Source: an uncultured Mycoplasmatota bacterium | GTDB lineage: Bacteria; Bacillota_I; Bacilli_A; RF39; UBA660 | Direction: 5' to 3' | Assembly: GCA_947426265.1 (NCBI GenBank) | Contig: CANEDJ010000002.1 | Coordinates: 367-64,366 of the forward strand | Length of the DNA stretch: 64,000 nucleotides | Shown: piece after piece, positions 11,807-58,772 of the stretch | How the letters are laid out: the number at the start of each line of letters is the position of its first letter | How positions within the stretch are numbered: position 1 is the first letter of the stretch | Notes under the pieces: generated by a model | Told to the model about the DNA's origin: nothing | Seen by the model: the letters and a program-made list of their open reading frames with translations, nothing else | The model's database searches: none | Program-made: the position numbers and the translations under genes

Positions 11807-12148
11807 ATGAAACAAGTAATGAATGTAGAGTTTTTAGATAATGAAACAGTTGAAATTAAATATGGCGGAAAAACAAGCAATGATTTAAAAGAAAAACTTT
11901 TGAATTCTTTTAAATACGATATTTTTAAAAAAGGTTATATTGTTGAAGATGATATTCATAGGCAAGATATTGGGGATTTTATTTATTATCAATTTTATTA
12001 TTTTGATGGAACAAGCTCTAGAGATGTTTGGTTTCAAATTCCTAAAAATGATTTGAACTCAATTCATTTTGTTGACCAAATACTATTGGAAATTGAAAAG
12101 AAAAAAGAAGAAGAAATTCCAGATATTATTTTTGAAGATGAAGAATAA
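11807..12148 (+). CDS. Hypothetical small acidic protein
   Basis: 113-aa ORF with RBS. No motif recognised. Confidence 0.4.
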   Translation: MKQVMNVEFLDNETVEIKYGGKTSNDLKEKLLNSFKYDIFKKGYIVEDDIHRQDIGDFIYYQFYYFDGTSSRDVWFQIPKNDLNSIHFVDQILLEIEKKKEEEIPDIIFEDEE

Positions 12149-14516: not shown

Positions 14517-14563
14517 AAATTATCTATACAGTGATCATAGGTTCTAGCTAAGAGGTGAGATTT

Positions 14564-14707
14564 ATGAAGATGAAAGATATGGCACTTATGGGATTAGGTG
14601 CAGGAGCTGTTTTGATGTATCAGAAATACAATAAACCAGTAATGAAGAAAATGGAAAAGGCTATGAATAAGGTAGCAAAAAAAGCAGATAAACAGTTAGA
14701 AAATATG
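14564..14707 (+). CDS. Small hypothetical protein (about 47 aa), absent from the ORF track
   Basis: RBS AGAGGTGAG precedes the ATG at 14564. Sequence MKMKDMALMGLGAGAVLMYQKYNKPVMKKMEKAMNKVAKKADKQLEI. A strong terminator follows immediately. Confidence 0.35.
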
Positions 14708-14712
14708 ATGTA

Positions 14713-14738
14713 GAAAAAAGCTCTTTTGAGCTTTTTTT
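14713..14738 (+). terminator. Rho-independent terminator
   Basis: AAGCTC-TTTT-GAGCTT followed by TTTTT. Confidence 0.7.
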
Positions 14739-15123
14739 GATTATAGTATTAAAAAAGCTGTTTGTGATATAATCATATTATAAGTGAGAGATGAAGAAAG
14801 AATGAAAAAATGATTCTTTAATACCAACAATTTGTCCACAATATGGTGTTAATATAGAGCAAAGGAAAAATCTTCATATAGATGGTATGTTGTTTATAGG
14901 GAAGGGTTATCAAATCTCTAAAATAAATTTTCTGTGGATATTTTTTTAAATTCCTTGTATCATTTTACTGATAATGTCAATTTTTCAAAAGATATACATA
15001 TAATAAAAGTAGAGAAATCTTAGGATTAAGGTTTCTCTTTTACTTTACATTTTTATGATAACGCTCTATACAAAAAAGATAAAATTTGGTATAATATAAT
15101 GTGAGAAAAGGTAAGGTGATAGT

Positions 15124-18135: not shown

Positions 18136-20094
18136 TTATTCAACTACATAAATAGTATATGTCTTACAACTAACAATAGGAGTTCCATTATTAGTAGGAG
18201 AAGATGGATGAATTAATCCTGAATTAATACTATTGTGATCTTTGGTGACTATATTGAATATTGCACCAGGATAAGCAGATGCCAATTTTGATTTTAAACT
18301 TGAAATTGTCTTACTTGAATTTCCAGGGCTAAGCCATCCTTCTTGAATATTTAAATTTCCTAATGATTTTTCAGTACATGTTGGAGTAGTTGGTTTATTT
18401 GTAGAATTAGAACCATTTCCAGAAGGTTTCGGACCATTGCTAACTGTTAATACAACTGTTGTGCCATCAATAACTTTTGATCCAGAGCTCATGCTTTGAT
18501 TGAATATAATACCTTTGGTTTTGCTACTGTAGACATAGGACATTTTACAAGTAATTCCTAAGTTATTACAAGTCGTTTGTGCTTTGCTCGCACTCATTCC
18601 AATAAAACTAGGGAGTTCTATAGAAGCACCTAAAGATATAACAACTTTAAATTCATCACCTGGATTAATTTCTTCGCCTGGTTTTTTAGAAATACTGATA
18701 AATTTTCCTTTTTCAACTGTTTCGCTAAATTCTGATTCTTCATTTAAGGTTAGTTTATTTTCGTTTGCAAAGTTACGAAGAGCTATAATATCACCATCTG
18801 CAATAGTAATCATTTTTAAAGTACCCTTAGAAGTGATAATATGAATTCTGGCATTTTCTTCTAATGTATCTCCTTCTTTAACACTAACTCTAATAATTTC
18901 ACCAGCTTTAATTTCGCTATTGTATTCACTTTCATAAATAATGACTAATTTATTTTTTATTGCCCATTCTGTAATTTCATCTAATGACATTTTCATTAAA
19001 TCAGGAGCAATAATTTTTGGACCTTTTGAAATAATAATTTGTACAGTAGTTTCCTTTTGGTTGATTAATGTACCACTATCTGGGGTTGTAGAAATAACAT
19101 TTCCTGCTTTGATATCATTGCTGAATTCATAGGAAATTTCATATCTAATTCCGTTTCTTTTTAACCATAAAATAGCATCAAATTCTTCTAAATTGGCTAA
19201 ATCTTTTAAATTAACTGGTTTTAAATCTGCCTCATTTCCTAATGAGAATGTAATGTTAATTTCTTCATTTCTTCTAACTTCACCAGATTTATTTTGCTCA
19301 AATGCAACATCTTTTTCGATTGCTTCATTAAACTGATATTCTATATTTACATTATTTAATTTTAATTCTTTAATTTTTAAAACCACATCATCTATATTCC
19401 AGCCAATCATATTGGGAATGCTAACAATAGATTCATAATTAGGCCCGTTAGAAACAACAACTTCTAAAGATTTTATTTCTTTTACTAAAGTATTAGCGGG
19501 AATGCTTTGACTAATAACGTGATCACTTTCTATAGAATCGCTATATTCATAAGTTTGCTCTAAAGTTATCTTATTTTTATTAGCCCATTTTACAACTTCA
19601 TTGATACTAACATTACTAAAGTCTCCAACGGTTTTTAAAGTGGGCAATGTAAGAATGTTAGAAGTAACAAGAAATTGAAATCCAGTATATAAAGTAATTA
19701 ATACGATACCAAATAGTTCCAATTTTTTTTGAATTTTTTGATTTGTTGTAAAACCAGTTAGAACCATAAAAGAACTAATTAGTAATAAACATGTACTTGT
19801 AATAATTAAATAGGGTTGATTTACTTGATCAGTAGATTTTACGATTGTATATATTAGAAAGCTTAAACTAGATACAAGTGCAATAAAAGAGATGACTGTA
19901 AGTAAAGTACGAGGCTTTTGCTGTCCAGCTTTTATTTTCTCTTTAGACCCCTTCGACTTTTTTTGTTCTTTTTTCTGGACTTCTTTTTTCTTAGAATCCT
20001 TTCTTTCTTTTTTTTCACTTTTTAAGCTTTCTTCGTCTTCTTTTAAAGCACTTAATAAGTCTAATTTTTCTTTTAATCTCTCATTTTCATTCAT
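18136..20094 (-). CDS. PASTA-domain membrane protein without a kinase or PBP domain
   Basis: K/E-rich coiled-coil N-terminus, one TM helix, then at least five ~70-aa repeats each ending SNGP/SKGP (PASTA-like). RBS AGGTGA on the minus strand. Confidence 0.6.
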   Translation of the reverse strand: MNENERLKEKLDLLSALKEDEESLKSEKKERKDSKKKEVQKKEQKKSKGSKEKIKAGQQKPRTLLTVISFIALVSSLSFLIYTIVKSTDQVNQPYLIITSTCLLLISSFMVLTGFTTNQKIQKKLELFGIVLITLYTGFQFLVTSNILTLPTLKTVGDFSNVSINEVVKWANKNKITLEQTYEYSDSIESDHVISQSIPANTLVKEIKSLEVVVSNGPNYESIVSIPNMIGWNIDDVVLKIKELKLNNVNIEYQFNEAIEKDVAFEQNKSGEVRRNEEINITFSLGNEADLKPVNLKDLANLEEFDAILWLKRNGIRYEISYEFSNDIKAGNVISTTPDSGTLINQKETTVQIIISKGPKIIAPDLMKMSLDEITEWAIKNKLVIIYESEYNSEIKAGEIIRVSVKEGDTLEENARIHIITSKGTLKMITIADGDIIALRNFANENKLTLNEESEFSETVEKGKFISISKKPGEEINPGDEFKVVISLGASIELPSFIGMSASKAQTTCNNLGITCKMSYVYSSKTKGIIFNQSMSSGSKVIDGTTVVLTVSNGPKPSGNGSNSTNKPTTPTCTEKSLGNLNIQEGWLSPGNSSKTISSLKSKLASAYPGAIFNIVTKDHNSINSGLIHPSSPTNNGTPIVSCKTYTIYVVE

Positions 20095-20278: not shown

Positions 20279-23200
20279 ATGAGAAAACAATTATCAATGA
20301 AAAACTTTATTACAGGAATTATTCCATATTTTGTTTTAGCAATCCTTGGATTTGTACGAGTGGATTTTTTTGTAGATAATCTTGGGGATGAAATTTATGC
20401 AATTAATCAATTGTTTTTTCAAATATTTGCTTATATTTCTTTGGTAGAAGCAGGTATTGGACCTCTTATTACGCAACAATATTATAAATTCTTTGCAGAT
20501 CAAGACCATAAATCTATTAGTGGACTTTATACAACCTCAAAGAAAATGTTACAAAAAATTTCAATTGCTATTTTAATAATTGGGTTTATCGTTTCTTTAT
20601 TTTTAAAATTTTTGACAAATAATAACTTAGCGCTTGGATATATGCAAATTGTATTTATGATATTCTTATTTCGCAGCATTTTGGAATACCTAATGCTTTC
20701 TCCGCGATTGGTATTACAAGCAGATCAAAGAATTTATAAAATTAATGTGTTATTGAATGCTTATAAAGTAATAGAAATTATTGTAGAAATTACACTGTTA
20801 CAATGTGGAATTGATTATTTAGTTATTTTGTTATCTTCTATTGTAGTAAGATTCTTGTCTTATTACTATACTAATCGTAAAATCTTTAAAGAGTATCCTT
20901 GGTTAACTGTGGTAAATAAAAATGAAGTGGTAAAATTAAAAAATTCAACTAGTGTTTTATGGCATAAATTGGCAGATGCCATTTATAATAATACGGATAT
21001 TTTATTAATATCTGCTAAGTTGGAACCAATAAGTGTTGTTATTTATTCTGCTTATAAGTATATTGTAAAATTTATTGTAGATGGAGTTTATATCTTATCA
21101 AATGCTTTGACAGCAAGTTTTGGAAATGTAGTTTATAAAAGCAAGAAAGCGGACAAACATCTGATATTTGAAGAAATGAATATGGCCTTTTTAGCGGCAG
21201 CTAGCTTTTTTACGATTACTGTTTATGTATTAAGTCATACTTTTGTGTCTTTGTGGTTAGGCCCAAATAAGTTAATGGATAATTTAGCTTTTATTTTTAT
21301 GATAATAGTATTATTCAACGATATTGCTAGAAGACCATTTCTTATTTGTAGGGATGCTAATGGATTGTTTAAAGAAACACAATTGATTACAATTGTAGAA
21401 TCCTTTTTAAATTTAATATTATCAATAGTACTAGTTTTTAAATATGGTGTAGTTGGAGTTTTATTTGCAACAGCTTTTTCAACACTTGCCACAAGTTTTT
21501 GGTTTTATCCACGTTATATTTATAAACAGGCATTTTATATGGATTCAAAGCAATACTTTCTCAAATACTTTACTTGTGTAATAATAACCATAATAGGATG
21601 TTTTGTTGGAAGACATTTGTTTGAAATTTTACCCTCTTCTGGTTATGTTAGTTGGATTTTCAGCGCTGTTGTTATTTGTCTATTAGCAATTGTTTTGATT
21701 GCTATAACATTTATAATATGTTTTAAAGATTTTCGCAGATTGTTATATAAAGCAAAATTATTGTTGGAGGAGATGAAAATAATGGAAAGATTGAAAAATA
21801 TGAAGAAGATGATGATTGATAAAGAAGTTCTTATAAAATTATTGATGTTCTTTTTAATGTTACAACCTGTTTTAGATATTTATATATTATTTGAACCTAC
21901 AGTTGTTTCATTTTTTCACTTTTCTCCAACGACAATTATAAGAATCCTTTTTGTTGGGCTATTGCTTTTAATGTTAGGATTTACATTAAAATATTCAAAA
22001 AAATATTTTTTGATGTTGGGATATATATTTTTGGTTGTTTTATATGCAATATTTCATCATTTGAATGCGATGCAGTTTCAATCTAATGTGCCAGGGAATT
22101 TTGGTTATTCTTTTACGTCAGAAATTTTCTATATTATTCGAATGTTATTGCCACTTATTATGATTATAATATCCTATCATGTAAAATTTAGTGAGAAGCG
22201 AATGCAAACAGTAATTCAAACTTTAATACTTCTTATTTCTGGAAGCATTGTTATAACTAATCTTTTTTCTATATCTTTAGCTTCTTATACAAAAACATCA
22301 ATAGCAGCGAATATATTTACATGGTTTACTGATCAATATGAAAAATATAATTATTTACAATTGGCATCAAGAGGTTTTTTTGTGTCAGCAAATCGTATTT
22401 CAGCATTAGAACTTCTATTGACACCAATTTGGTTATTTTTCTTTATTAAAAAACCTACCAAAAAAAACATAGTTATTACTATTATACACATTATTGCAAT
22501 GCTTATGCTTGGAACAAAAGTTGCAACTTTGGGAATAATTTTGTTATTAATCTTATCGTTTTTAATATATTGCTATTGTTGCTTTATACAAAAAGAATTT
22601 GAATTTTCTAAAAAAATTTTATATTCATTTATTATGTTTGTAATCATTTGGAGCTCTATATTTCCGCTATCGCCTGCAATGAATCGAAATAATATTGATA
22701 ATAATAGAGAACAAAATTCTGAAACGATGGTAACTTGCAAAAAAATGAAGCAAATACCGTTAGGTCAGATAAAATATGAAGATCCTTTAATTGAATATGA
22801 AACTGATGATCTTACGAAATGCTCATTAAATAAGGATTTAGAAAAGCAAAAATTGGAATTAGTAGAAAGAAATTTAGCATTTCTTTCAAAAGAAGAAGAA
22901 AAAGTAGAATATTTAAAATCTTTTATAGAAGTAGAATATGAGAATTTCAATATAAAGACGGAGTTTCTTTTTGAATCTTATCCGTATCAATATAACCCTT
23001 ATTTTTGGTATGATATTATGAAAGAACCTTTAATGGTGCGAACTAATTTTAGAATTTTAGAGGAACGAATGCTTTCCAATATAAAAAAACAAAATAATAA
23101 TTACTATGATAATTATTTTGGCATTACATTTACTAGAATGAGTAATATTTTTGATTTAGAAAGAGATTTCATTTCACACTATTATACATTAGGATGGTGC

Positions 23201-24619
23201 GGGTTAATTTTATTGTTATTCCCTTATTTGATAATTGTGGTGTTTGGAATTATTTTAATGTTATTTCAATTTAAAGAAAAAATTAATTTTTATAATATAA
23301 TGCTATTATTTTCGATTGGAATTACATTATTTGCTGCATATTATAGTGGAAATATAATGGATGGTTTAATTGTTACCTTGATTTTAGGATTTATTATTGG
23401 ACAATTTGTACAATGTGTATATAGGAGGAATAAAACAATGAATGAAAAGAAAAAAATATCCATTATTATGCCAACTTATAATGATGCAAAAAGTATTTGT
23501 GAAACACTAGATTCTGTCATAGAACAAACTTATCAAAATTGGGAATTAATTATTGTTGATGATGGTTCAAAGGATGAAACAAGATCAGTGATAAAAAGTT
23601 ATAAAAAAGCCCACAAAAATGATAATAGAATTCAATATGTATACCAAAAAAACACAGATCAATTAAAGGCTATTATACATGGAATGGATTACATAAGCGG
23701 AGATTATATTTATATTCTTCATTCTGATGACTTGCTAGCAACAAAAATGGTATTTGAAAGGGCAGTTCAATACTTAGAAAAGTATACAGAAGTTGATGCT
23801 ATAATAGGAGATTTGATTGTAATTGATGAAAATAGTAAAATAACAGGAAGGCAAGAAGTATTATCATACTTAAAAAAAGAAAAAACTCCAGCAATTCAGC
23901 TACTTTGGCTTGGAAGAAATTTATATGTTGATTTTGCTTTTCATAGAAAAAAATTTTTTTTTGAAAATGTAAAAGAAAATTATTTAACTTGGAATACTCC
24001 TTTTTGGTTAAACACCTCTGATTCTTTATCTATGCTAAATGTAAAAAAAGTTGATTTTGAATTTATTAAATATAGGGTCCATAGTGGCAATTATATCAAT
24101 AATGATATTGGCAAATTAAATGTTATAAATGGAGAACTAAGAACGGTTACTCGTTTAATGAAATATTATGACATTCCAAATTATAAAAAACAATTTTATA
24201 TTTTTCGTATTTTCAATCGATTAAATTTTTTACAGATTTATAAGCCTCTATATAAAAAACGAGAATTTACAAATAAAGCAGAAGTTTTGGATTTTATAAT
24301 TCGAAAGAGATTTTCAAATGGATATAATGATAATTGTTTTTTAAAAAGTCTTGTAAGTTTTTATGAAAATTTTCATTCAAGAAAAATATATTTTAAAGAT
24401 ATTTATAATAATGAAATTATATATAAGGGAAATGAAATGAGGCAATTTAACAAAGAATTAATAGATAATAAATTACCAAATCTATATTTATCTATATTCA
24501 AAGAAATGCAAGTTGGCTTTGATGAGATTATAGTGAAGACTGAAGAGGAAAAAGAAAAAGCGATTAATTTAACAAAATTTTTATGTATTTATCCATTTGT
24601 AAAAGTTACGAAGAAGTAG
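20279..24619 (+). CDS. Tri-modular glycopolymer protein: Wzx-type polysaccharide flippase (aa 1-~490), Wzy/O-antigen-ligase-like polytopic module (aa ~499-1050), family-2 glycosyltransferase (aa ~1054-1446)
   Basis: Continuous 1446-codon frame in AT-rich DNA. The N-terminal module has a 12-14 TM MOP-flippase pattern. The middle module has many TM helices plus a ~190-aa hydrophilic loop. The C-terminus reads ISIIMPTYNDAKSICETLDSVIEQTYQNWELIIVDDGSKDET (GT2 DXD region). Internal RBS+ATG pairs sit at both junctions (GGAGGAG at 21766 then ATG 21773/21782; AGGAGG at 23423 then ATG 23438). Confidence 0.65.
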   Translation: MRKQLSMKNFITGIIPYFVLAILGFVRVDFFVDNLGDEIYAINQLFFQIFAYISLVEAGIGPLITQQYYKFFADQDHKSISGLYTTSKKMLQKISIAILIIGFIVSLFLKFLTNNNLALGYMQIVFMIFLFRSILEYLMLSPRLVLQADQRIYKINVLLNAYKVIEIIVEITLLQCGIDYLVILLSSIVVRFLSYYYTNRKIFKEYPWLTVVNKNEVVKLKNSTSVLWHKLADAIYNNTDILLISAKLEPISVVIYSAYKYIVKFIVDGVYILSNALTASFGNVVYKSKKADKHLIFEEMNMAFLAAASFFTITVYVLSHTFVSLWLGPNKLMDNLAFIFMIIVLFNDIARRPFLICRDANGLFKETQLITIVESFLNLILSIVLVFKYGVVGVLFATAFSTLATSFWFYPRYIYKQAFYMDSKQYFLKYFTCVIITIIGCFVGRHLFEILPSSGYVSWIFSAVVICLLAIVLIAITFIICFKDFRRLLYKAKLLLEEMKIMERLKNMKKMMIDKEVLIKLLMFFLMLQPVLDIYILFEPTVVSFFHFSPTTIIRILFVGLLLLMLGFTLKYSKKYFLMLGYIFLVVLYAIFHHLNAMQFQSNVPGNFGYSFTSEIFYIIRMLLPLIMIIISYHVKFSEKRMQTVIQTLILLISGSIVITNLFSISLASYTKTSIAANIFTWFTDQYEKYNYLQLASRGFFVSANRISALELLLTPIWLFFFIKKPTKKNIVITIIHIIAMLMLGTKVATLGIILLLILSFLIYCYCCFIQKEFEFSKKILYSFIMFVIIWSSIFPLSPAMNRNNIDNNREQNSETMVTCKKMKQIPLGQIKYEDPLIEYETDDLTKCSLNKDLEKQKLELVERNLAFLSKEEEKVEYLKSFIEVEYENFNIKTEFLFESYPYQYNPYFWYDIMKEPLMVRTNFRILEERMLSNIKKQNNNYYDNYFGITFTRMSNIFDLERDFISHYYTLGWCGLILLLFPYLIIVVFGIILMLFQFKEKINFYNIMLLFSIGITLFAAYYSGNIMDGLIVTLILGFIIGQFVQCVYRRNKTMNEKKKISIIMPTYNDAKSICETLDSVIEQTYQNWELIIVDDGSKDETRSVIKSYKKAHKNDNRIQYVYQKNTDQLKAIIHGMDYISGDYIYILHSDDLLATKMVFERAVQYLEKYTEVDAIIGDLIVIDENSKITGRQEVLSYLKKEKTPAIQLLWLGRNLYVDFAFHRKKFFFENVKENYLTWNTPFWLNTSDSLSMLNVKKVDFEFIKYRVHSGNYINNDIGKLNVINGELRTVTRLMKYYDIPNYKKQFYIFRIFNRLNFLQIYKPLYKKREFTNKAEVLDFIIRKRFSNGYNDNCFLKSLVSFYENFHSRKIYFKDIYNNEIIYKGNEMRQFNKELIDNKLPNLYLSIFKEMQVGFDEIIVKTEEEKEKAINLTKFLCIYPFVKVTKK

Positions 24620-32398: not shown

Positions 32399-33356
32399 TT
32401 TTGATGGAACTATTTATGATGGAGATTCTTCAGCTGATTTTTATAAATTTTGTTTTAAAAAGAAAAAAAGTATTTGCAAATATTGTATAAAACAACTGTG
32501 GTTTCTTGGACTTTATGTTTTAGGGCTAAAAACAAAAACAGAAATGAAAGAAGTGTTATTTTCTTTCTTAAAAGAGTTCAAAGACCAAGAAAAATTAGTA
32601 GAAGAATTTTGGGATAAACATTATGTAAAGATGAAGAAATGGTATTTAGAAAAAAGTCATTCAAATGATATTATTATTTCTGCTTCTCCAGAGTTTCTTT
32701 TAGAAGTTCCTTGTAAAAGATTAAAAGTAAAAGATTTAATTGCCACAAAAGTAGATATGAAAACAGGAGAATTTTTAAGTGAAAATTGCCATGGAGAAGA
32801 AAAAGTAAAAAGAATTAAAAAAAAATATCCAAAAGCAGAAGTAGAAGAAATGTATACAGATAGTCATGTAGACTTACCAATGATTGAATTAGCAAAAAAA
32901 GGATTCAAAGTGAAAAAAAATGTAGTCATGCCTTATTATGACTATAAAGAAACAAAATTAGAAAAAATAAAGCATACATTTTTAACTCCTAAATTTATAC
33001 GATTTGTATTTGTAGGGTGTTTAAATACCTTTAATGGAGTATTGTTTTCATTTTTATATTCATTATTTATAGAGAATGCTACTATAGCATTTATGGTAGG
33101 ATATATGACAAGTTTAATATTTTCTTACTTATTAAATAGTTTTATTACATTTCATGATAAAAAAATTACTATTTTTAAATTTATTAAATTTTGTATTTCT
33201 TACATACCTAACTTTATCATTCAACTCATTTGTGTATATATTGTTATTGATTTATTACATTGGTATAAATTGATAGCCTATATTATTGCAGCAGTTATAG
33301 GAATACCAATTACTTATTTAGCACTATTATTATTTCCGTTTAAAGAAAAGAAATAA
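32379..33356 (+). CDS. HAD-superfamily phosphatase fused to a C-terminal GtrA-like membrane domain
   Basis: HAD motif I MKIIAYDFDGTIYDG. C-terminal 120 aa repeat the GtrA pattern (FIRFVFVGCLNTFNGVLFSFL...). RBS GGAAGGA before the ATG at 32379. Overlaps the upstream gtrA-like gene by 20 nt. Confidence 0.6.
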   Translation: MKIIAYDFDGTIYDGDSSADFYKFCFKKKKSICKYCIKQLWFLGLYVLGLKTKTEMKEVLFSFLKEFKDQEKLVEEFWDKHYVKMKKWYLEKSHSNDIIISASPEFLLEVPCKRLKVKDLIATKVDMKTGEFLSENCHGEEKVKRIKKKYPKAEVEEMYTDSHVDLPMIELAKKGFKVKKNVVMPYYDYKETKLEKIKHTFLTPKFIRFVFVGCLNTFNGVLFSFLYSLFIENATIAFMVGYMTSLIFSYLLNSFITFHDKKITIFKFIKFCISYIPNFIIQLICVYIVIDLLHWYKLIAYIIAAVIGIPITYLALLLFPFKEKK

Positions 33357-33394
33357 ATATTAAAATAAGCATATAATATATTGATTTTATCAAT

Positions 33395-33423
33395 TTGACA
33401 TTTTATTTTAACTATGATAGAAT
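33395..33423 (+). promoter_or_regulatory. Consensus sigma-A promoter driving the structured RNA
   Basis: TTGACA, 17 nt, TAGAAT. Confidence 0.6.
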
Positions 33424-33429
33424 GTTGAA

Positions 33430-34035
33430 TTGTAAATTGAAATGGCACATTATTCTAGTCAATTTCGTTTATTATGAAGGTGGCCCTAAAAAGTCACTAA
33501 AGAGCATATCTGTGAAACTTCTGGTGCTTGCTTCTTACGCCCAGTTTGGGGTGAGTGCTGGGAGGTATGGATGTTTAGGCAACTGTAATGGCATACAGAA
33601 CAATCGACCCACCATCTTGGAGACCTAACCTTGTTATTTCCCTATACACGAAAGTTGATGGAGAAGTGACGACTTAGGATTAAACCTACTATGTGATGAT
33701 AAGTTACGAGTAGTGTAGCTTGTCCTGAGTGAGTATTTGGGGATTATTGAACGGCTTTTATTTGATTGGCCAACCAAATAAAAGAATTGCAATATGAAAC
33801 AATACTTGCAAAAAGGAACTAATAATAAACAGAGTTGTCGAGGAAATCTCCTAGAGTGTCTATTTATATAGGATTGCAGTGCGTACTCAGTGGCAATCAA
33901 GTCATATATTCGGTGACGATATATTTACTTCTATAATGGGGAACCCCTCGTCTGGTAACGGAAGAGTTTGAAGTAAGGGAAATCCTACTTGACCTTAAGA
34001 CGTAAAGTTTACTATATAAATAGCCATTTTTTTGT
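33430..34035 (+). ncRNA. Large (~600 nt) structured ncRNA; candidate OLE-like (ornate large extremophilic) RNA
   Basis: GC content is clearly above the flanks. Six-frame ORFs here are short and on both strands. Own perfect promoter. Immediately upstream of a 4-TM ~21-kDa membrane protein, matching the reported OLE-oapA arrangement in anaerobic/extremophilic Firmicutes. Confidence 0.45.
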
Positions 34036-34055
34036 ATATTTTTAAGAGGTGTATA

Positions 34056-34637
34056 ATGGGAAAATATATTGATGAATTAAATAAAAATAAGAAACTAAAA
34101 AAAGAAAAAAAATTAGTTGATTATAGGTGGATCTTGAAAATATCGATTATAGCTTTTACTTTATCTATTGTATTTTCGCTACTTTCAGAAACAGTTATGC
34201 CAAAGGTGAATCTTTGGATAGGAATTATTATATTAATTCTGTTTATTGGAATCGGAATTATGTTTGATATGGTAGGAGTAGCAGTAACAGCAGCAGCAGA
34301 AACCCCATTTCATTCTATGGCAGCAAGAAAAGTAAGAGGAGCTAAAGTAGCTGTAAAATTTAAAAAGAACGCCGCTCAAGTGTCTTCCTTTTGTAATGAT
34401 GTAATAGGAGATATTTGTGGCATTGTATCAGGATCGACAGGAGCTATTTTAGCAATCACGATTTCTTCTTCCTTGCGAGTTGATGCTCTATTAGTAAGTT
34501 TACTTGTAACTGCTTTGATAGCAGCCCTAACAATAGGAGGAAAAGCAATGGGAAAAGGTTTTGCTGTCAGTAAAAGTAATATCATTTTATATGAATTTTC
34601 TAAAATAGTATCATTATTTTATAATCCCAAAAAATAA
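34056..34637 (+). CDS. OapA-like small polytopic membrane protein (4 TM)
   Basis: RBS AAGAGGTG precedes the ATG at 34056 (MGKYIDEL...). Four hydrophobic helices. Position directly downstream of the large ncRNA. Confidence 0.45.
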   Translation: MGKYIDELNKNKKLKKEKKLVDYRWILKISIIAFTLSIVFSLLSETVMPKVNLWIGIIILILFIGIGIMFDMVGVAVTAAAETPFHSMAARKVRGAKVAVKFKKNAAQVSSFCNDVIGDICGIVSGSTGAILAITISSSLRVDALLVSLLVTALIAALTIGGKAMGKGFAVSKSNIILYEFSKIVSLFYNPKK

Positions 34638-34668
34638 GTAGGAAACTATTAAAGTTGTAAGATAAATG

Positions 34669-34725
34669 TTGACAATTATTGCTAAATTTAGATATAATAA
34701 TAATTAGAAATAGTAATCATTACTA
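34669..34725 (+). promoter_or_regulatory. Promoter (TTGACA-18-TATAAT) plus a perfect 7-1-7 Fur-family (PerR-like) box TAGTAATcATTACTA at the transcription start
   Basis: -35 at 34669-34674, -10 at 34693-34698, palindrome at 34711-34725 directly upstream of the Fur-family gene. Confidence 0.6.
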
Positions 34726-34741
34726 CTTAGGAAGTGATATT

Positions 34742-35125
34742 TTGAAATATTCTGATAGAAGAGAATGTATATTTGAAAGAATAAAAAATTCTTATGATCA
34801 TCCAACTGCTGAAATGATTTATGAAGACGTAAGGAAAAGTATTCCAAATATTAGTTTAGGAACTGTTTATCGCAATTTAAATCAATTAGTAGAGGAAGGG
34901 TATATCAGAAAAATTACAAACCTTGATGAAAACGCTCGTTATGATAAAAATGATATGCATGCTCATATGAAATGTCTAAATTGTGGACTGATTTTAGATT
35001 TAGAAAAAACAATGATACCAAATATTTCAGAGTACGTAGAAGAAAAAAGTGGTAATAAGATACTATCTCAAGAATTATTGCTTACAGGAATCTGTAAAGA
35101 ATGTAGAAAGAAGGAAAAAGTATGA
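34742..35125 (+). CDS. Fur-family transcriptional regulator, PerR-like (peroxide regulon repressor-type)
   Basis: Fur fold [36 protein letters not shown] and two CxxC pairs (CLNC...CKEC). TTG start after AGGAAGTGA. The ORF-track N-terminus runs through the promoter and is not real. Subtype assignment rests on rubrerythrin adjacency. Confidence 0.65.
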
Positions 35126-35661
35126 ATTTAAAAGGAACGAAAACAGAACAAAATTTAATGGCAGCATTTGCTGGTGAAAGTCAAGCTAGAAACAAATATA
35201 CTTATTATGCATCAAAAGCTAAAAAAGAAGGATACGAACAAATTGCAGCAATTTTTGAAGAAACTGCTAAAAACGAAAAAGAACATGCTAAAATGTGGTT
35301 CAAATTATTACATGAAGATCAAGTTCCATCAACAATTGAAAATTTAGAAGATGCAGCGAATGGAGAAAATTATGAATGGACAGAAATGTATGCAGAATTC
35401 GCTAAAATAGCTCGTGAAGAAGGATTGGAAAAAATCGCATTCCTTTTTGAAGGAGTAGCTAAAATTGAAAAAGAACATGAAGAAAGATATAAAGCATTAC
35501 TAGCTAATATCAAAGAAGGAAAAGTGTTTGAAAAAGAAACAAAAACAATGTGGGTATGTCGTAACTGCGGGCACGTTCACTTTGGAGAAAAAGCTCCAGA
35601 GGTTTGTCCAATTTGTGCTCATCCACAAGCATATTTTGAATTAAGAGCTACAAACTATTAA
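35122..35661 (+). CDS. rbr: Rubrerythrin
   Basis: Di-iron ferritin-like motifs ([32 protein letters not shown]) and a C-terminal rubredoxin-like CRNCGHVH...CPICAHP. Confidence 0.9.
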
Positions 35662-37459: not shown

Positions 37460-37750
37460 ATGCTAGAGTTTAAAGATAATGAGACAATAGAGGTTATTGA
37501 TACACAAGCCTGGATAGAATCTAATAATGAAAAAATAGAAATTCAGTTAATTGTTACAAATATGCGCTTTTTAGCAGTTAAGGAGACTCCAAAAGGAAAA
37601 TTTGTAATCTGTGATTTCAATTTGGAAGAAATGGAAAGAATAGATCATCAAACACAAAATACAACTTGCTGGTTAGTTGAAAATCGATTTGTAAAATTTG
37701 ATAGTGATCCGATTGGAGAATATTTACTAAAATATATTTCAAACAAATAA
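37460..37750 (+). CDS. Hypothetical protein
   Basis: 96-aa ORF. No motif recognised. Confidence 0.35.
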   Translation: MLEFKDNETIEVIDTQAWIESNNEKIEIQLIVTNMRFLAVKETPKGKFVICDFNLEEMERIDHQTQNTTCWLVENRFVKFDSDPIGEYLLKYISNK

Positions 37751-37818: not shown

Positions 37819-37895
37819 GGCGATGTAGCTCAGTTGGCTAGAGCAACTGGTTCATACCCAGTAGGTCGAGAGTTCGAATCTCCCCGTCGCTACCA
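37819..37895 (+). tRNA. tRNA-Met (anticodon CAU; elongator or lysidine-modified Ile2, not initiator)
   Basis: Cloverleaf folds by eye. Acceptor GGCGATG pairs with CGTCGCT (including G-U). Anticodon loop TTCATAC. T-loop TTCGAAT. CCA end encoded. Confidence 0.8.
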
Positions 37896-46306: not shown

Positions 46307-46380
46307 TGCCGCAATAGTATAATGGTATTACGAGGCCATGGTAAGGCTTTAACGTAGGTCCGATTCCTACTTGCGGCACC
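46307..46380 (+). tRNA. tRNA-Thr (anticodon GGU)
   Basis: Acceptor GCCGCAA pairs with TTGCGGC. Anticodon stem AGGCC/GGCTT with loop ATGGTAA. T-arm GTAGG-TCCGATT-CCTAC. CCA encoded. Preceded by TGGTATAAT. Confidence 0.75.
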
Positions 46381-50178: not shown

Positions 50179-50255
50179 GTCTCCGTAGCTCAGCTGGATA
50201 GAGCGACCCCCTCCTAAGGGGTAGGCCGAAGGTTCAAATCCTTTCGGGGACACCA
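50179..50255 (+). tRNA. tRNA-Arg (anticodon CCU)
   Basis: Acceptor GTCTCCG pairs with CGGGGAC. Anticodon stem ACCCC/GGGGT with loop CTCCTAA. T-loop TTCAAAT. CCA encoded. Preceded by extended -10 GTGCTATAAT. Confidence 0.75.
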
Positions 50256-57753: not shown

Positions 57754-58488
57754 ATGACAGTTATATTATTATCACCAGATGGAAAAAAATTTGAGTTAGA
57801 GTGGGAAGACTTATTGGAATGTAGTAAACAAATATGTGAGCAATGGATTTCAGAATCGGAAGAGAATAAAAGAATTTTTGATTCTTATGCATCACAATAT
57901 ACATTGTTTACTCCTTATTATGATTTCCTATTACACCGACTTCGATATATACAAGTAGGATTTCCTTTTTTTGAAAACGCATGTGCAATTCCAAGCTTAC
58001 ATTTTAAGAAAATAATATCTTTGGATGGAGAGGACCCATTAAACTATGATTATTTGAAAAATAGAAAGAATCAATTTTGTTTAGATATTTATACAGGTTC
58101 AGATAAGCAATTAGACTATCAAAAGCCATACAGTGAATATAAAGAAGGATTTTTACTTCCAGATGGTTCTTTAATTTCTATAGACCAATTAGGAAATCAT
58201 AAAAATATTGCCTATGCATATTTGCTTCAAAAAATGATTGAGGATCCTTCTTTGTTGACTGATTATTTGAATTATAAGGACAAAATAGGAGATATCAGAG
58301 AATACTTTTTTTATAGATTGGGCTGTGCTCAAACTTTTGGTTTAGAATGTAGAGTTGCAATTTATGATGTTGCTTTATTAACGTCAATTCAAAGAAAATT
58401 ATTGAATTCTATGGATTTAGATAGTGATTTGCAAAACTCTATTTTAGAAGAATTTCAAAATCCATTTACATCGGAGATAAGGAAGTGA
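57754..58488 (+). CDS. Hypothetical protein (244 aa)
   Basis: ORF with RBS AAGAGGCAAAGA. 4-nt overlap with the next gene. Confidence 0.45.
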   Translation: MTVILLSPDGKKFELEWEDLLECSKQICEQWISESEENKRIFDSYASQYTLFTPYYDFLLHRLRYIQVGFPFFENACAIPSLHFKKIISLDGEDPLNYDYLKNRKNQFCLDIYTGSDKQLDYQKPYSEYKEGFLLPDGSLISIDQLGNHKNIAYAYLLQKMIEDPSLLTDYLNYKDKIGDIREYFFYRLGCAQTFGLECRVAIYDVALLTSIQRKLLNSMDLDSDLQNSILEEFQNPFTSEIRK

Positions 58489-58772
58489 TATGCATGAAAA
58501 TTAATGGTTATAATGTTAATATTGATTCCTTAATGGAGGATTTAAATATTGATCATGATTTTTATATAAAACGGAAAAACGGATTAATGTTAAAAGATTC
58601 ACAAATAAAAATATTAGAGCGTTACCACATTTTTTATCAAAATTACAATAGTCTTTCTTCTTTATTATTTGAAATAGAAGAAGTTTTAAATGAAATGCCA
58701 GAAGCAGAAGAACTTGAAAAAGTATCGGAAGAATTATCAGAGCTTCATTATTATAACGAAACAAATAAATAG
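58485..58772 (+). CDS. Hypothetical small acidic protein (95 aa)
   Basis: ATGA overlap with the upstream gene. Confidence 0.35.
   Translation: MICMKINGYNVNIDSLMEDLNIDHDFYIKRKNGLMLKDSQIKILERYHIFYQNYNSLSSLLFEIEEVLNEMPEAEELEKVSEELSELHYYNETNK

Follow-up and report, generated by a model that had tools for sequence, protein, structure and literature searches.

What does the longest intergenic region of this DNA encode, and how is it related to the small membrane-protein gene that follows it? The region is a 699-nt non-coding gap (33357-34055) in a window of 64,000 nucleotides, by which we mean the whole stretch analysed, taken from an uncultured Mycoplasmatota bacterium (GenBank assembly GCA_947426265.1, contig CANEDJ010000002.1, positions 367 to 64,366 of the forward strand). 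It lies between a HAD-GtrA gene ending at 33356 and the open reading frame (ORF) of a 193-aa protein. A reading of the letters without database searches, here called the original prediction, had proposed an RNA resembling OLE, the ornate large extremophilic RNA, followed by a gene resembling oapA, which encodes the obligatory membrane-protein partner of OLE. Our analysis indicates that positions 33395-34637 on the + strand are almost certainly an ole-oapA unit, in which a strong sigma-70 promoter precedes a full-length OLE RNA gene and, after it, the gene for OapA, and every element that had been named lies where the original prediction placed it.

The gap stands out in composition as well as in length. 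Its G+C fraction is the highest among the intergenic regions of the window, at 0.351 (0.374 for the OLE RNA itself and 0.288 for the whole window), and a 300-nt sliding window peaks at 0.41 over it. None of the 17 other gaps that reach 80 nt exceeds 0.312 (the lowest has 0.198), in agreement with the proposal that a 0.6-kb stretch is GC-enriched relative to neighbouring intergenic regions. The stretch folds better than dinucleotide shuffles of it (z = -2.5), and the ORFs within it are, as had also been noted, short and mutually overlapping on both strands (77 aa on the plus strand, 88 aa on the minus strand, and two of 33 and 30 aa).

Identity of the RNA

A scan of the whole window against Rfam 15, using the check that had been suggested for this locus, returned RF01071 (OLE) at 33426-34043 on the + strand with 398.9 bits (E 1e-113), the gathering score of this family being 50; besides OLE, the scan gave only three tRNAs. 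The match is untruncated, covers model positions 1-616 of 616, and was the same when the stretch was scanned in isolation. With the consensus structure projected onto it, the window RNA retains 155 of the 159 model pairs, 141 of them in canonical form. The four lost pairs all belong to one small hairpin (model 424-435), and 212 of the 249 strongly conserved, upper-case consensus nucleotides are identical.

The alternatives that had been named alongside OLE did not compete with it. ROOL, GOLLD and raiA gave no match at gathering in the whole window and none at E<=10 within 33300-34150. A permissive re-scan of the same interval at E<=10 brought up, beyond OLE, only chance-level fragments of unrelated eukaryotic and CRISPR models, and no Rfam family except OLE reaches E<=0.5 on the stretch; for want of a covariance-model match, ROOL, GOLLD, raiA and other Rfam families are excluded. 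Coding of a small protein was rejected as well. The 77- and 88-aa ORFs do overlap the stretch, but they are short and overlap each other on opposite strands, and in the same columns of the alignment of related RNAs described below (A2) the relatives show many indels whose lengths are not divisible by three. The pattern of substitutions is that of base-pairing and not of codons. That the stretch is another large ornate RNA or a small-protein coding sequence has, in our estimate, next to no probability.

An independent comparative test was based on related loci that were collected via the downstream protein, not via the RNA. From an alignment of 16 protein homologs (A1), 80 loci were retrieved from one-genome-per-species contigs. 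Of 17 loci tested by Rfam, 15 have a full-length OLE immediately before the homolog (374-491 bits), and an nhmmer profile places OLE upstream of the homolog in 74 of 80. The 67 distinct full-length RNAs were aligned with MAFFT, blind to structure (alignment A2), and the window structure was projected onto this alignment for pair counts. Since the Rfam structure line is without the long-range helices P1, P2 and P3/P3.1, these were recovered by a minimum-free-energy (MFE) fold of the window sequence. Controls were of two kinds, slid alignments in which the 3′ partners were displaced by 1-3 columns, and 500 shuffles.

Standard pairs occupy 88.1% of cells in A2, compared with 38-46% in the slid controls, and both-sided (compensatory) changes are found in 121 of 155 pairs. 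The covariation score reaches 0.485, whereas the slid controls give 0.10-0.13, and none of the 500 shuffles equals any observed covariation measure. For P1 and P3/P3.1 taken jointly, 83% of cells are paired (29-52% when slid) and 21 of 23 pairs are compensatory. The OLE architecture is maintained by compensatory evolution, and given these controls it is very unlikely that the Rfam match and the covariation are an alignment artefact. Relative to the nearest different species (locus L005), the OLE RNA is 95.7% identical, oapA 82.0% and the upstream gene 79.6%, and the third codon positions of oapA are only 60% identical. Purifying selection on the RNA is evident, and the RNA is more conserved than the coding genes beside it.

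Architecture and type of the RNA

The window RNA has essentially the whole OLE architecture, P1-P10 and P12-P15 (Table 1). Among the long-range helices, P1 is paired in 82.8% of cells, with 6 of 8 pairs compensatory. The strands of the P2-like helix at 33447-50 and 33454-58 are 89.3% paired, against 29-53% when slid, and show compensatory changes at A2 columns 25/529 and 29/528. This helix holds a palindromic CUAG element; palindromic sites near P2 and P4a contact OapA (PMC12265935). P3.1 (33460-65) and P3 (33467-75) contribute 6 and 9 bp around a 1-nt bulge, are 83.5% paired, and are compensatory at 15 of 15 pairs. The P3 stem has been proposed to cross the membrane, in a model that needs about 12-14 bp (PMC12265935), a length roughly matched by the 15 bp of P3 and P3.1 in the window RNA.

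Table 1. Positions of the promoter, RNA elements and protein-coding gene of the ole-oapA unit in the window
Feature	Position	Strand	Detail	Basis
sigma-70-type ole promoter	33395..33423	+	-35 TTGACA 33395-33400; 17-nt spacer; TG 33415-33416; -10 TAGAAT 33418-33423	
OLE RNA gene	33426..34043	+	full-length form, 618 nt	Rfam RF01071, covariation, conservation
P1	33439-33446 with 34023-34030	+	5′ strand GAAAUGGC pairs with GCCAUUUU	MFE fold, covariation
P2-like long-range helix	33447-33458 with 33851-33859	+	ACAU ... UCUAG with CUAGA-GUGU	covariation
P3.1 and P3	33460-33475 (5′ strands) with 33822-33837	+		MFE fold, covariation
P4 hairpin	33479..33498	+	A-rich loop CCUAAAAA at 33485-33492	structure projection
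P5/P5.1 with kink-turn flanks	33506..33572	+	hairpin 33518-33564; loop GCCCA 33539-33543	
P6/P6.1	33569..33616	+	loop AUGGCA 33588-33593	projection, covariation
P7 and P8	33624..33712	+	P7 33624-33678; P8 33686-33712	projection, covariation
P9 long arm	33722..33818	+	palindromic loop UGGCCA 33767-33772	projection, covariation
3′ domain P12-P15	33861..34021	+	helices 77-100% paired	projection
P13 hairpin	33904-33924	+	AUAUA-U-UCG-GUGA-CGA-UAUAU; bulged U 33909; GUGA tetraloop 33913-33916	
P14.1 tetraloop	33955-33958	+	GUAA tetraloop	
oapA ribosome-binding site	34044..34051	+	AAGAGGTG; ends 4 nt before ATG 34056	read from sequence
oapA	34056..34637	+	193-aa basic membrane protein, four predicted transmembrane helices	

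At the level of sequence, the dimerisation loops of P4, P5.1/P6.1 and P9 are all present, and are either invariant or covary as palindromes. P4 is 94.5% paired, with 5 of 6 pairs covarying, and its A-rich loop is a dimerisation centre in models from cryo-electron microscopy (cryo-EM) (PMC12265935). The P5/P5.1 helix is 90.7% paired, and the GGC of the P6.1 loop is complementary to the GCC of the P5.1 loop, both loops being invariant in A2; in the same models these two loops form a kissing-loop dimer contact (PMC12265935). The palindromic loop of P9 corresponds to a self-kissing dimer contact (PMC12265935). In A2 this terminal loop is always a palindrome, and its sequence varies by lineage (UGGCCA, UAGCUA or a GUAC core; columns ~435-440), which is the kind of change that a self-complementary kissing-loop contact predicts. 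The remaining arms are comparably well supported, with P7 and P8 paired in 85% and 91% of cells (12 of 17 and 9 of 13 pairs covarying) and P13 in 93.5% (8 of 8 pairs covarying). The site bound by OapB consists of a GNRA loop plus a 1-nt bulge in P13 (PMC7936274); by its sequence, the GNRA loop with a single bulged U in P13 of the window RNA is this OapB-recognised motif.

Three forms of OLE have been distinguished, full-length, variant 1 (short P7-P9 and no OapB site; TANB77) and variant 2 (no P7/P8; RF39) (PMC11332333). The hosts of the two variants are similar to that of the window, being uncultured low-GC gut Bacillota known from metagenome-assembled genomes (MAGs). The window RNA differs from both variants and is of the full-length type, because a long P7, P8, a long P9 arm and the OapB-site motif are kept. 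Several relatives in A2 have a truncated or missing P7, and both forms therefore occur among gut lineages.

Some accessory elements are specific to clades. The distal part of P7 (~33640-33662) carries the motif CCUAUACA ... UUGAUGG around a GNRA-type loop, which is common to about half of the Bacilli-MAG relatives and falls outside the Rfam consensus, as an 11-nt insertion in the cmscan alignment. Five Clostridia rows also have an extra GC-rich hairpin just after P5, and clade-specific accessory helices map to A2 columns 534-550 and 147-168 (window 33859-33861 and ~33571).

Promoter, OapA and the weighing of rival readings

The original prediction described the promoter as a perfect TTGACA-17-TAGAAT. 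The promoter is present with this spacing, but it is near-perfect, with 11 of 12 consensus matches plus an extended -10 TG. Promoter-like sites as such are not overrepresented here, where the DNA is AT-rich (15 sites against 13.3 expected). Of the 67 related loci, 62 carry a promoter that scores 9/12 or better and whose end falls 10-22 nt before the conserved 5′ block (AUGGCACAUUAUUCUAG), in most cases TTGACA-17-TATAAT with TG; because an equivalent is kept in these loci, the window promoter is more than a chance occurrence. In these lineages the possession of a strong promoter of its own is a conserved trait of ole, and transcription in the window would start near 33430.

The RNA gene is separated from oapA by 12 nt in the window, and by at most 200 nt in 62 of the 74 related loci. 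No intrinsic-terminator-like site was found in 33000-35200, hence none between the two genes, and with the oapA start codon only 12 nt away, co-transcription of ole with oapA is most likely. The same features could be taken to mean that the stretch is mainly a cis-acting leader of oapA, a riboswitch- or attenuator-like 5′ untranslated region and not a stable trans-acting RNA: with no terminator and so short a gap there is probably one transcript, and the tandem arrangement is conserved. The RNA is, however, a full-length copy from a class for which a role as stable, abundant and membrane-localised component of a ribonucleoprotein has been established (PMC12265935). In addition, the distance between ole and oapA exceeds 600 nt at 9 of the 74 loci, which does not suit a leader, and some 25 helices with conserved intermolecular kissing loops exceed known leaders. 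We regard the leader explanation as very unlikely.

The protein encoded downstream bears out the proposal of a four-transmembrane gene of about 193 codons with its own ribosome-binding site. It has a mass of 20,831 Da (20.8 kDa), a pI of 9.9 and four hydrophobic segments (residues ~24-46, 52-80, 116-138 and 141-163), and an AlphaFold2 (AF2) model is all-helical (pLDDT 77, pTM 0.67) with long helices at 23-50, 53-79, 106-140 and 144-172. A DxxxD motif (34398-34412) is found in N114-D115-V-I-G-D119, and D115 and D119 are invariant in the 16 homologs, down to 58% identity. This motif distinguishes OapA from CNNM domains, and its double substitution D100A/D104A is the dominant-negative PM1 of Halalkalibacterium halodurans (PMC11332333, PMC9723947). 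Conserved basic residues, which in OapA cluster on the cytoplasmic face, have their counterpart in a Lys-rich N-terminus (9-19) and in the loop 91-RKVRGAKVAVKFKKN-105, where R91, K104 and N105 are nearly invariant. In a Foldseek search against the PDB, the top four matches were the archaeal CNNM transporter MtCorB (7m1t_B, 7m1t_A and 7m1u_A) and the transmembrane domain of CorC (7cff), with E 8.7e-3 to 1.1, probabilities of 0.89-1.00 and TMq 0.46-0.48; later matches had probabilities of at most 0.16. 7M1U is also the top structural match reported for H. halodurans OapA (PMC11332333).

Judged from predicted and modelled features, the tandem arrangement, the DxxxD motif, the topology and the fold identify the gene as oapA. 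The expectation of an OapA-like protein is upheld by the position in tandem with ole, the size of ~21 kDa, the four transmembrane helices, the motif and the CNNM-like fold, as well as by the 74 of 80 homologs that lie behind OLE. We infer homology to H. halodurans OapA (BH2780) from the conserved synteny with OLE across Bacilli and Clostridia. The protein has about 7,000 homologs, the related loci that were collected come from gut Bacilli, Mollicutes-labelled and Clostridia MAGs, and an identical protein has been deposited as a hypothetical protein of 'MAG: Bacilli bacterium' (HFH09_02640).

Six loci with OapA homologs (L007, L008, L031, L058, L059 and L080) have no OLE within 4 kb (nhmmer; Rfam at E<=0.01). 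These loci are unusual, as in the literature ole and oapA are almost always in tandem. In L008 and L058 the OapA gene lies directly behind another protein-coding gene, with gaps of 234 and 9 nt, and from this tight packing ole is therefore elsewhere or absent there. A separate peculiarity of the collection is that 13 loci are labelled Muribaculaceae or Bacteroidaceae (Bacteroidota), namely L025, L026, L029, L031-L033, L041, L045, L049, L051, L053, L064 and L079. These MAG records carry typical Bacilli-type ole-oapA loci, and the labels probably reflect mislabelling or binning contamination; it has been remarked in the literature that OLE hits outside Bacillota resemble artefacts of assembly or transfer.

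Several observations pull against the identification of a working ole-oapA unit and need to be weighed. The first concerns the hairpin at model 424-435, which is missing from the window RNA and from every Bacilli-MAG row of A2 and is kept only in Clostridia rows. Because it is absent from every one of those Bacilli rows, its loss is a lineage trait and not damage.

The second concerns the kink-turn. In H. halodurans the kink-turn bound by OapC/YbxF lies at the base of P5 (PMC9723947), and the expected motif is UC, a 3-nt bulge and GA on one strand, with AA-GG on the other. The bulged strand, UC-UGU-GAAA, is intact in the window RNA, its UC-UGU-GA portion being conserved. On the non-bulged strand, where the consensus is UUAAGG, the window and the three relatives nearest to it have GUAUGG; elsewhere among the 67 tabulated sequences this strand is ..A-G in most relatives and UUAAG(G) in Clostridia. 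In GUAUGG, the A expected to pair with G beside the C helix is replaced or displaced, and a hand search of alternative registers in the P5 flanks found none in which the sheared G.A pair and the closing C-G pair coexist. For this reason, OapC-type recognition at P5 of the window RNA is uncertain.

Further points concern the proteins. The 193-aa protein has no match in Pfam (E<=0.01), NCBIfam or the sequences of the PDB (E<=1), and its identity as OapA is argued from synteny, motif, topology and fold for that reason. Neither Pfam PF01595 (CNNM) nor a CBS or CorC family matches it at E<=0.01, and the CorB fold match is modest (E 8.7e-3, TM 0.47). No small ORF resembling L7Ae (OapC) or KOW proteins (OapB) was found within the 64-kb window, and the particle may therefore be simpler than that of H. 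halodurans. OapB (YbzG) is an 11-kDa KOW protein and OapC (YbxF) a member of the L7Ae family; only ~60% and 45% of species with OLE have them, and reduced gut lineages are mostly without them (PMC11332333). The candidates checked were three small acidic ORFs at 11807-12148 (113 aa), 37460-37750 (96 aa) and 58485-58772 (95 aa), which have no Pfam match and only chance-level PDB sequence matches. The 96-aa ORF is conserved in position on four of four contigs with an identical oapA. Finally, every step of the functional model given below is transferred from distant species to an uncultured host.

The missing hairpin and the atypical kink-turn strand, together with 14 non-canonical model pairs, are also what could be cited for a decaying or non-functional OLE remnant. 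The hairpin is, however, equally absent from all the Bacilli-MAG relatives, in which the structure is otherwise preserved, and identity with the nearest species is 95.7% for the RNA against 60% for the third codon positions of oapA. The promoter and an intact oapA are retained, whereas the defective OLE copies in the literature are rare and lie in genomes without oapA (PMC11332333). We therefore consider a remnant extremely unlikely, and retain the interpretation of the locus as an ole-oapA unit.

Genomic setting, function and relation to known systems

Upstream of the ole-oapA unit is a glycopolymer locus with genes for a UbiA prenyltransferase, a PMT_2-like membrane protein, a family-2 glycosyltransferase (GT2), GtrA and HAD-GtrA; the cluster is headed by a 1,446-aa ORF (20279-24619) with O-antigen-ligase-like and family-2 glycosyltransferase domains. 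Downstream are genes for a Fur-family, PerR-like regulator, rubrerythrin, FolD and a short-chain dehydrogenase. Across the 80 related loci oapA is the only constant neighbour of ole. PerR recurs in 5, rubrerythrin in 7 and FolD in 4, and the glycopolymer genes in 0-1, the closest relative only. The adjacency to polyprenyl-linked envelope genes, to which the original prediction had drawn attention, is not conserved, and because just 1 of the 80 loci, that of the closest relative, has these genes next to ole, we regard an envelope-biosynthesis link of ole as incidental. The PerR-rubrerythrin pair fits an anaerobe. Together with the identity of the protein to one from a Bacilli MAG and the gut Bacilli and Clostridia relatives, it agrees with the anaerobic type of Bacillota setting that had been assumed, OLE hosts being Bacillota that are typically anaerobic or extremophilic.

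The operon of the PerR-like regulator and rubrerythrin has a separate promoter, a perfect 12/12 TTGACA-18-TATAAT at 34669-34698. It is followed at 34711-34725 by a perfect 7-1-7 palindrome, TAGTAATcATTACTA, which is like a Fur/PerR box and has no other exact copy in the window; the position of this palindrome after the promoter of the operon suggests that the regulator may be autoregulated. The regulator probably starts at TTG 34742, preceded by AGGAAGTG, which gives a protein of 127 aa in agreement with the call on contig L004; the ORF finder had placed the start at TTG 34679. Elsewhere in the window, the three tRNA genes are at 37819-37892, 46308-46378 and 50179-50252, and the second-largest gap (14517-15123; 607 nt, GC 0.27) matches no Rfam family at the gathering threshold. 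Nearly all genes are on the + strand, the sole long minus-strand ORF being 18136-20094, and GC skew is positive across the whole profiled stretch of 30-38 kb; on account of this gene bias and skew, the window fits a leading-strand segment of a low-GC Bacillota chromosome.

The function of the unit can be sketched by analogy with work on H. halodurans (genetics and biochemistry) and with clostridial cryo-EM (PMC12265935, PMC9723947, PMC7936274, PMC11332333). By this analogy the OLE RNA would probably be co-transcribed with oapA and accumulate as a stable RNA, and it would dimerise via its conserved loops. OapA dimers would bind OLE near P2/P4a and tether the RNA to the membrane, with the P3 stem possibly spanning the bilayer. 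The resulting particle may aid tolerance of excess Mg2+, cold, short-chain alcohols and poor carbon sources, plausibly through modulation of divalent-cation transport by the CNNM-like OapA, a modulation that would resemble the way in which the cytoplasmic domains of MpfA and CorB regulate their CNNM domain.

The closest known system is full-length OLE itself (RF01071; Puerta-Fernandez et al. 2006; Fernando and Breaker 2024, PMC11332333). The window RNA shares with it the end-to-end model match, the helices including P7/P8, the dimer loops, the GNRA-plus-bulge motif of P13, the tandem oapA and a Bacillota host, and differs in the absent hairpin 424-435, in having GUAUGG in place of UUAAGG, and in being AT-rich (37% GC). 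Its context differs too. In H. halodurans ole lies in a long polycistronic operon, whereas the window ole is preceded by a strong promoter of its own and is flanked by glycopolymer and PerR-rubrerythrin genes instead of genes for isoprenoid synthesis or DNA repair. With the OapA of H. halodurans (Block et al. 2011; Harris et al. 2018) the window protein shares the position after ole, the size of ~21 kDa, four transmembrane helices, the DxxxD motif, the basic loop and N-terminus, a CNNM-like fold, and CorB (7M1U/7M1T) as best structural match. The motif is at 100/104 in H. halodurans and at 115/119 here because the Lys-rich N-terminus is longer in the window protein.

The CNNM Mg2+ transporters MpfA, CorB and CorC have a similar transmembrane fold, and a shared role in Mg2+ homeostasis has been proposed in the literature. 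In contrast to them, the window protein, with 193 aa, has neither a CBS pair nor a CorC/HlyC domain, has four helices where CorB has three, and carries DxxxD. ROOL, GOLLD and raiA are likewise large structured noncoding RNAs of Bacillota, some of them homo-oligomeric, but they are without sequence or structure match to the window RNA and without a dedicated membrane-protein partner.

We also considered a more specific interpretation, in which gut Bacilli use a pared-down module of two genes, OLE and OapA, behind a strong promoter of its own, which has lost the P11-type hairpin and the canonical OapC kink-turn, has kept the OapB-site motif, and is occasionally linked to a PerR-rubrerythrin operon. 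In 7 of 80 species, a minority, the unit is immediately followed by a rubrerythrin operon under PerR control. We regard this interpretation as unlikely.

The RNA belongs to a known class, not a new one, and standard Rfam annotation finds the window copy; a published survey across GTDB lists 2,822 OLE hits, with lineages from gut metagenomes included. It had nevertheless been recognised as OLE from raw sequence, a recognition confirmed by Rfam, while the neighbouring envelope-biosynthesis genes turn out to be a non-conserved association of ole. OLE is among the largest and best-conserved bacterial noncoding RNAs, and current models place it across the membrane. The present locus provides a clean full-length example in a very AT-rich, uncultured member of the gut Bacilli, from a clade in which the ole promoter is conserved, one hairpin has been lost and the kink-turn strand is variable. 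If the association with PerR and rubrerythrin were to prove functional, OLE would be connected with the defence of anaerobes against oxidative stress, to which this RNA has so far not been tied.

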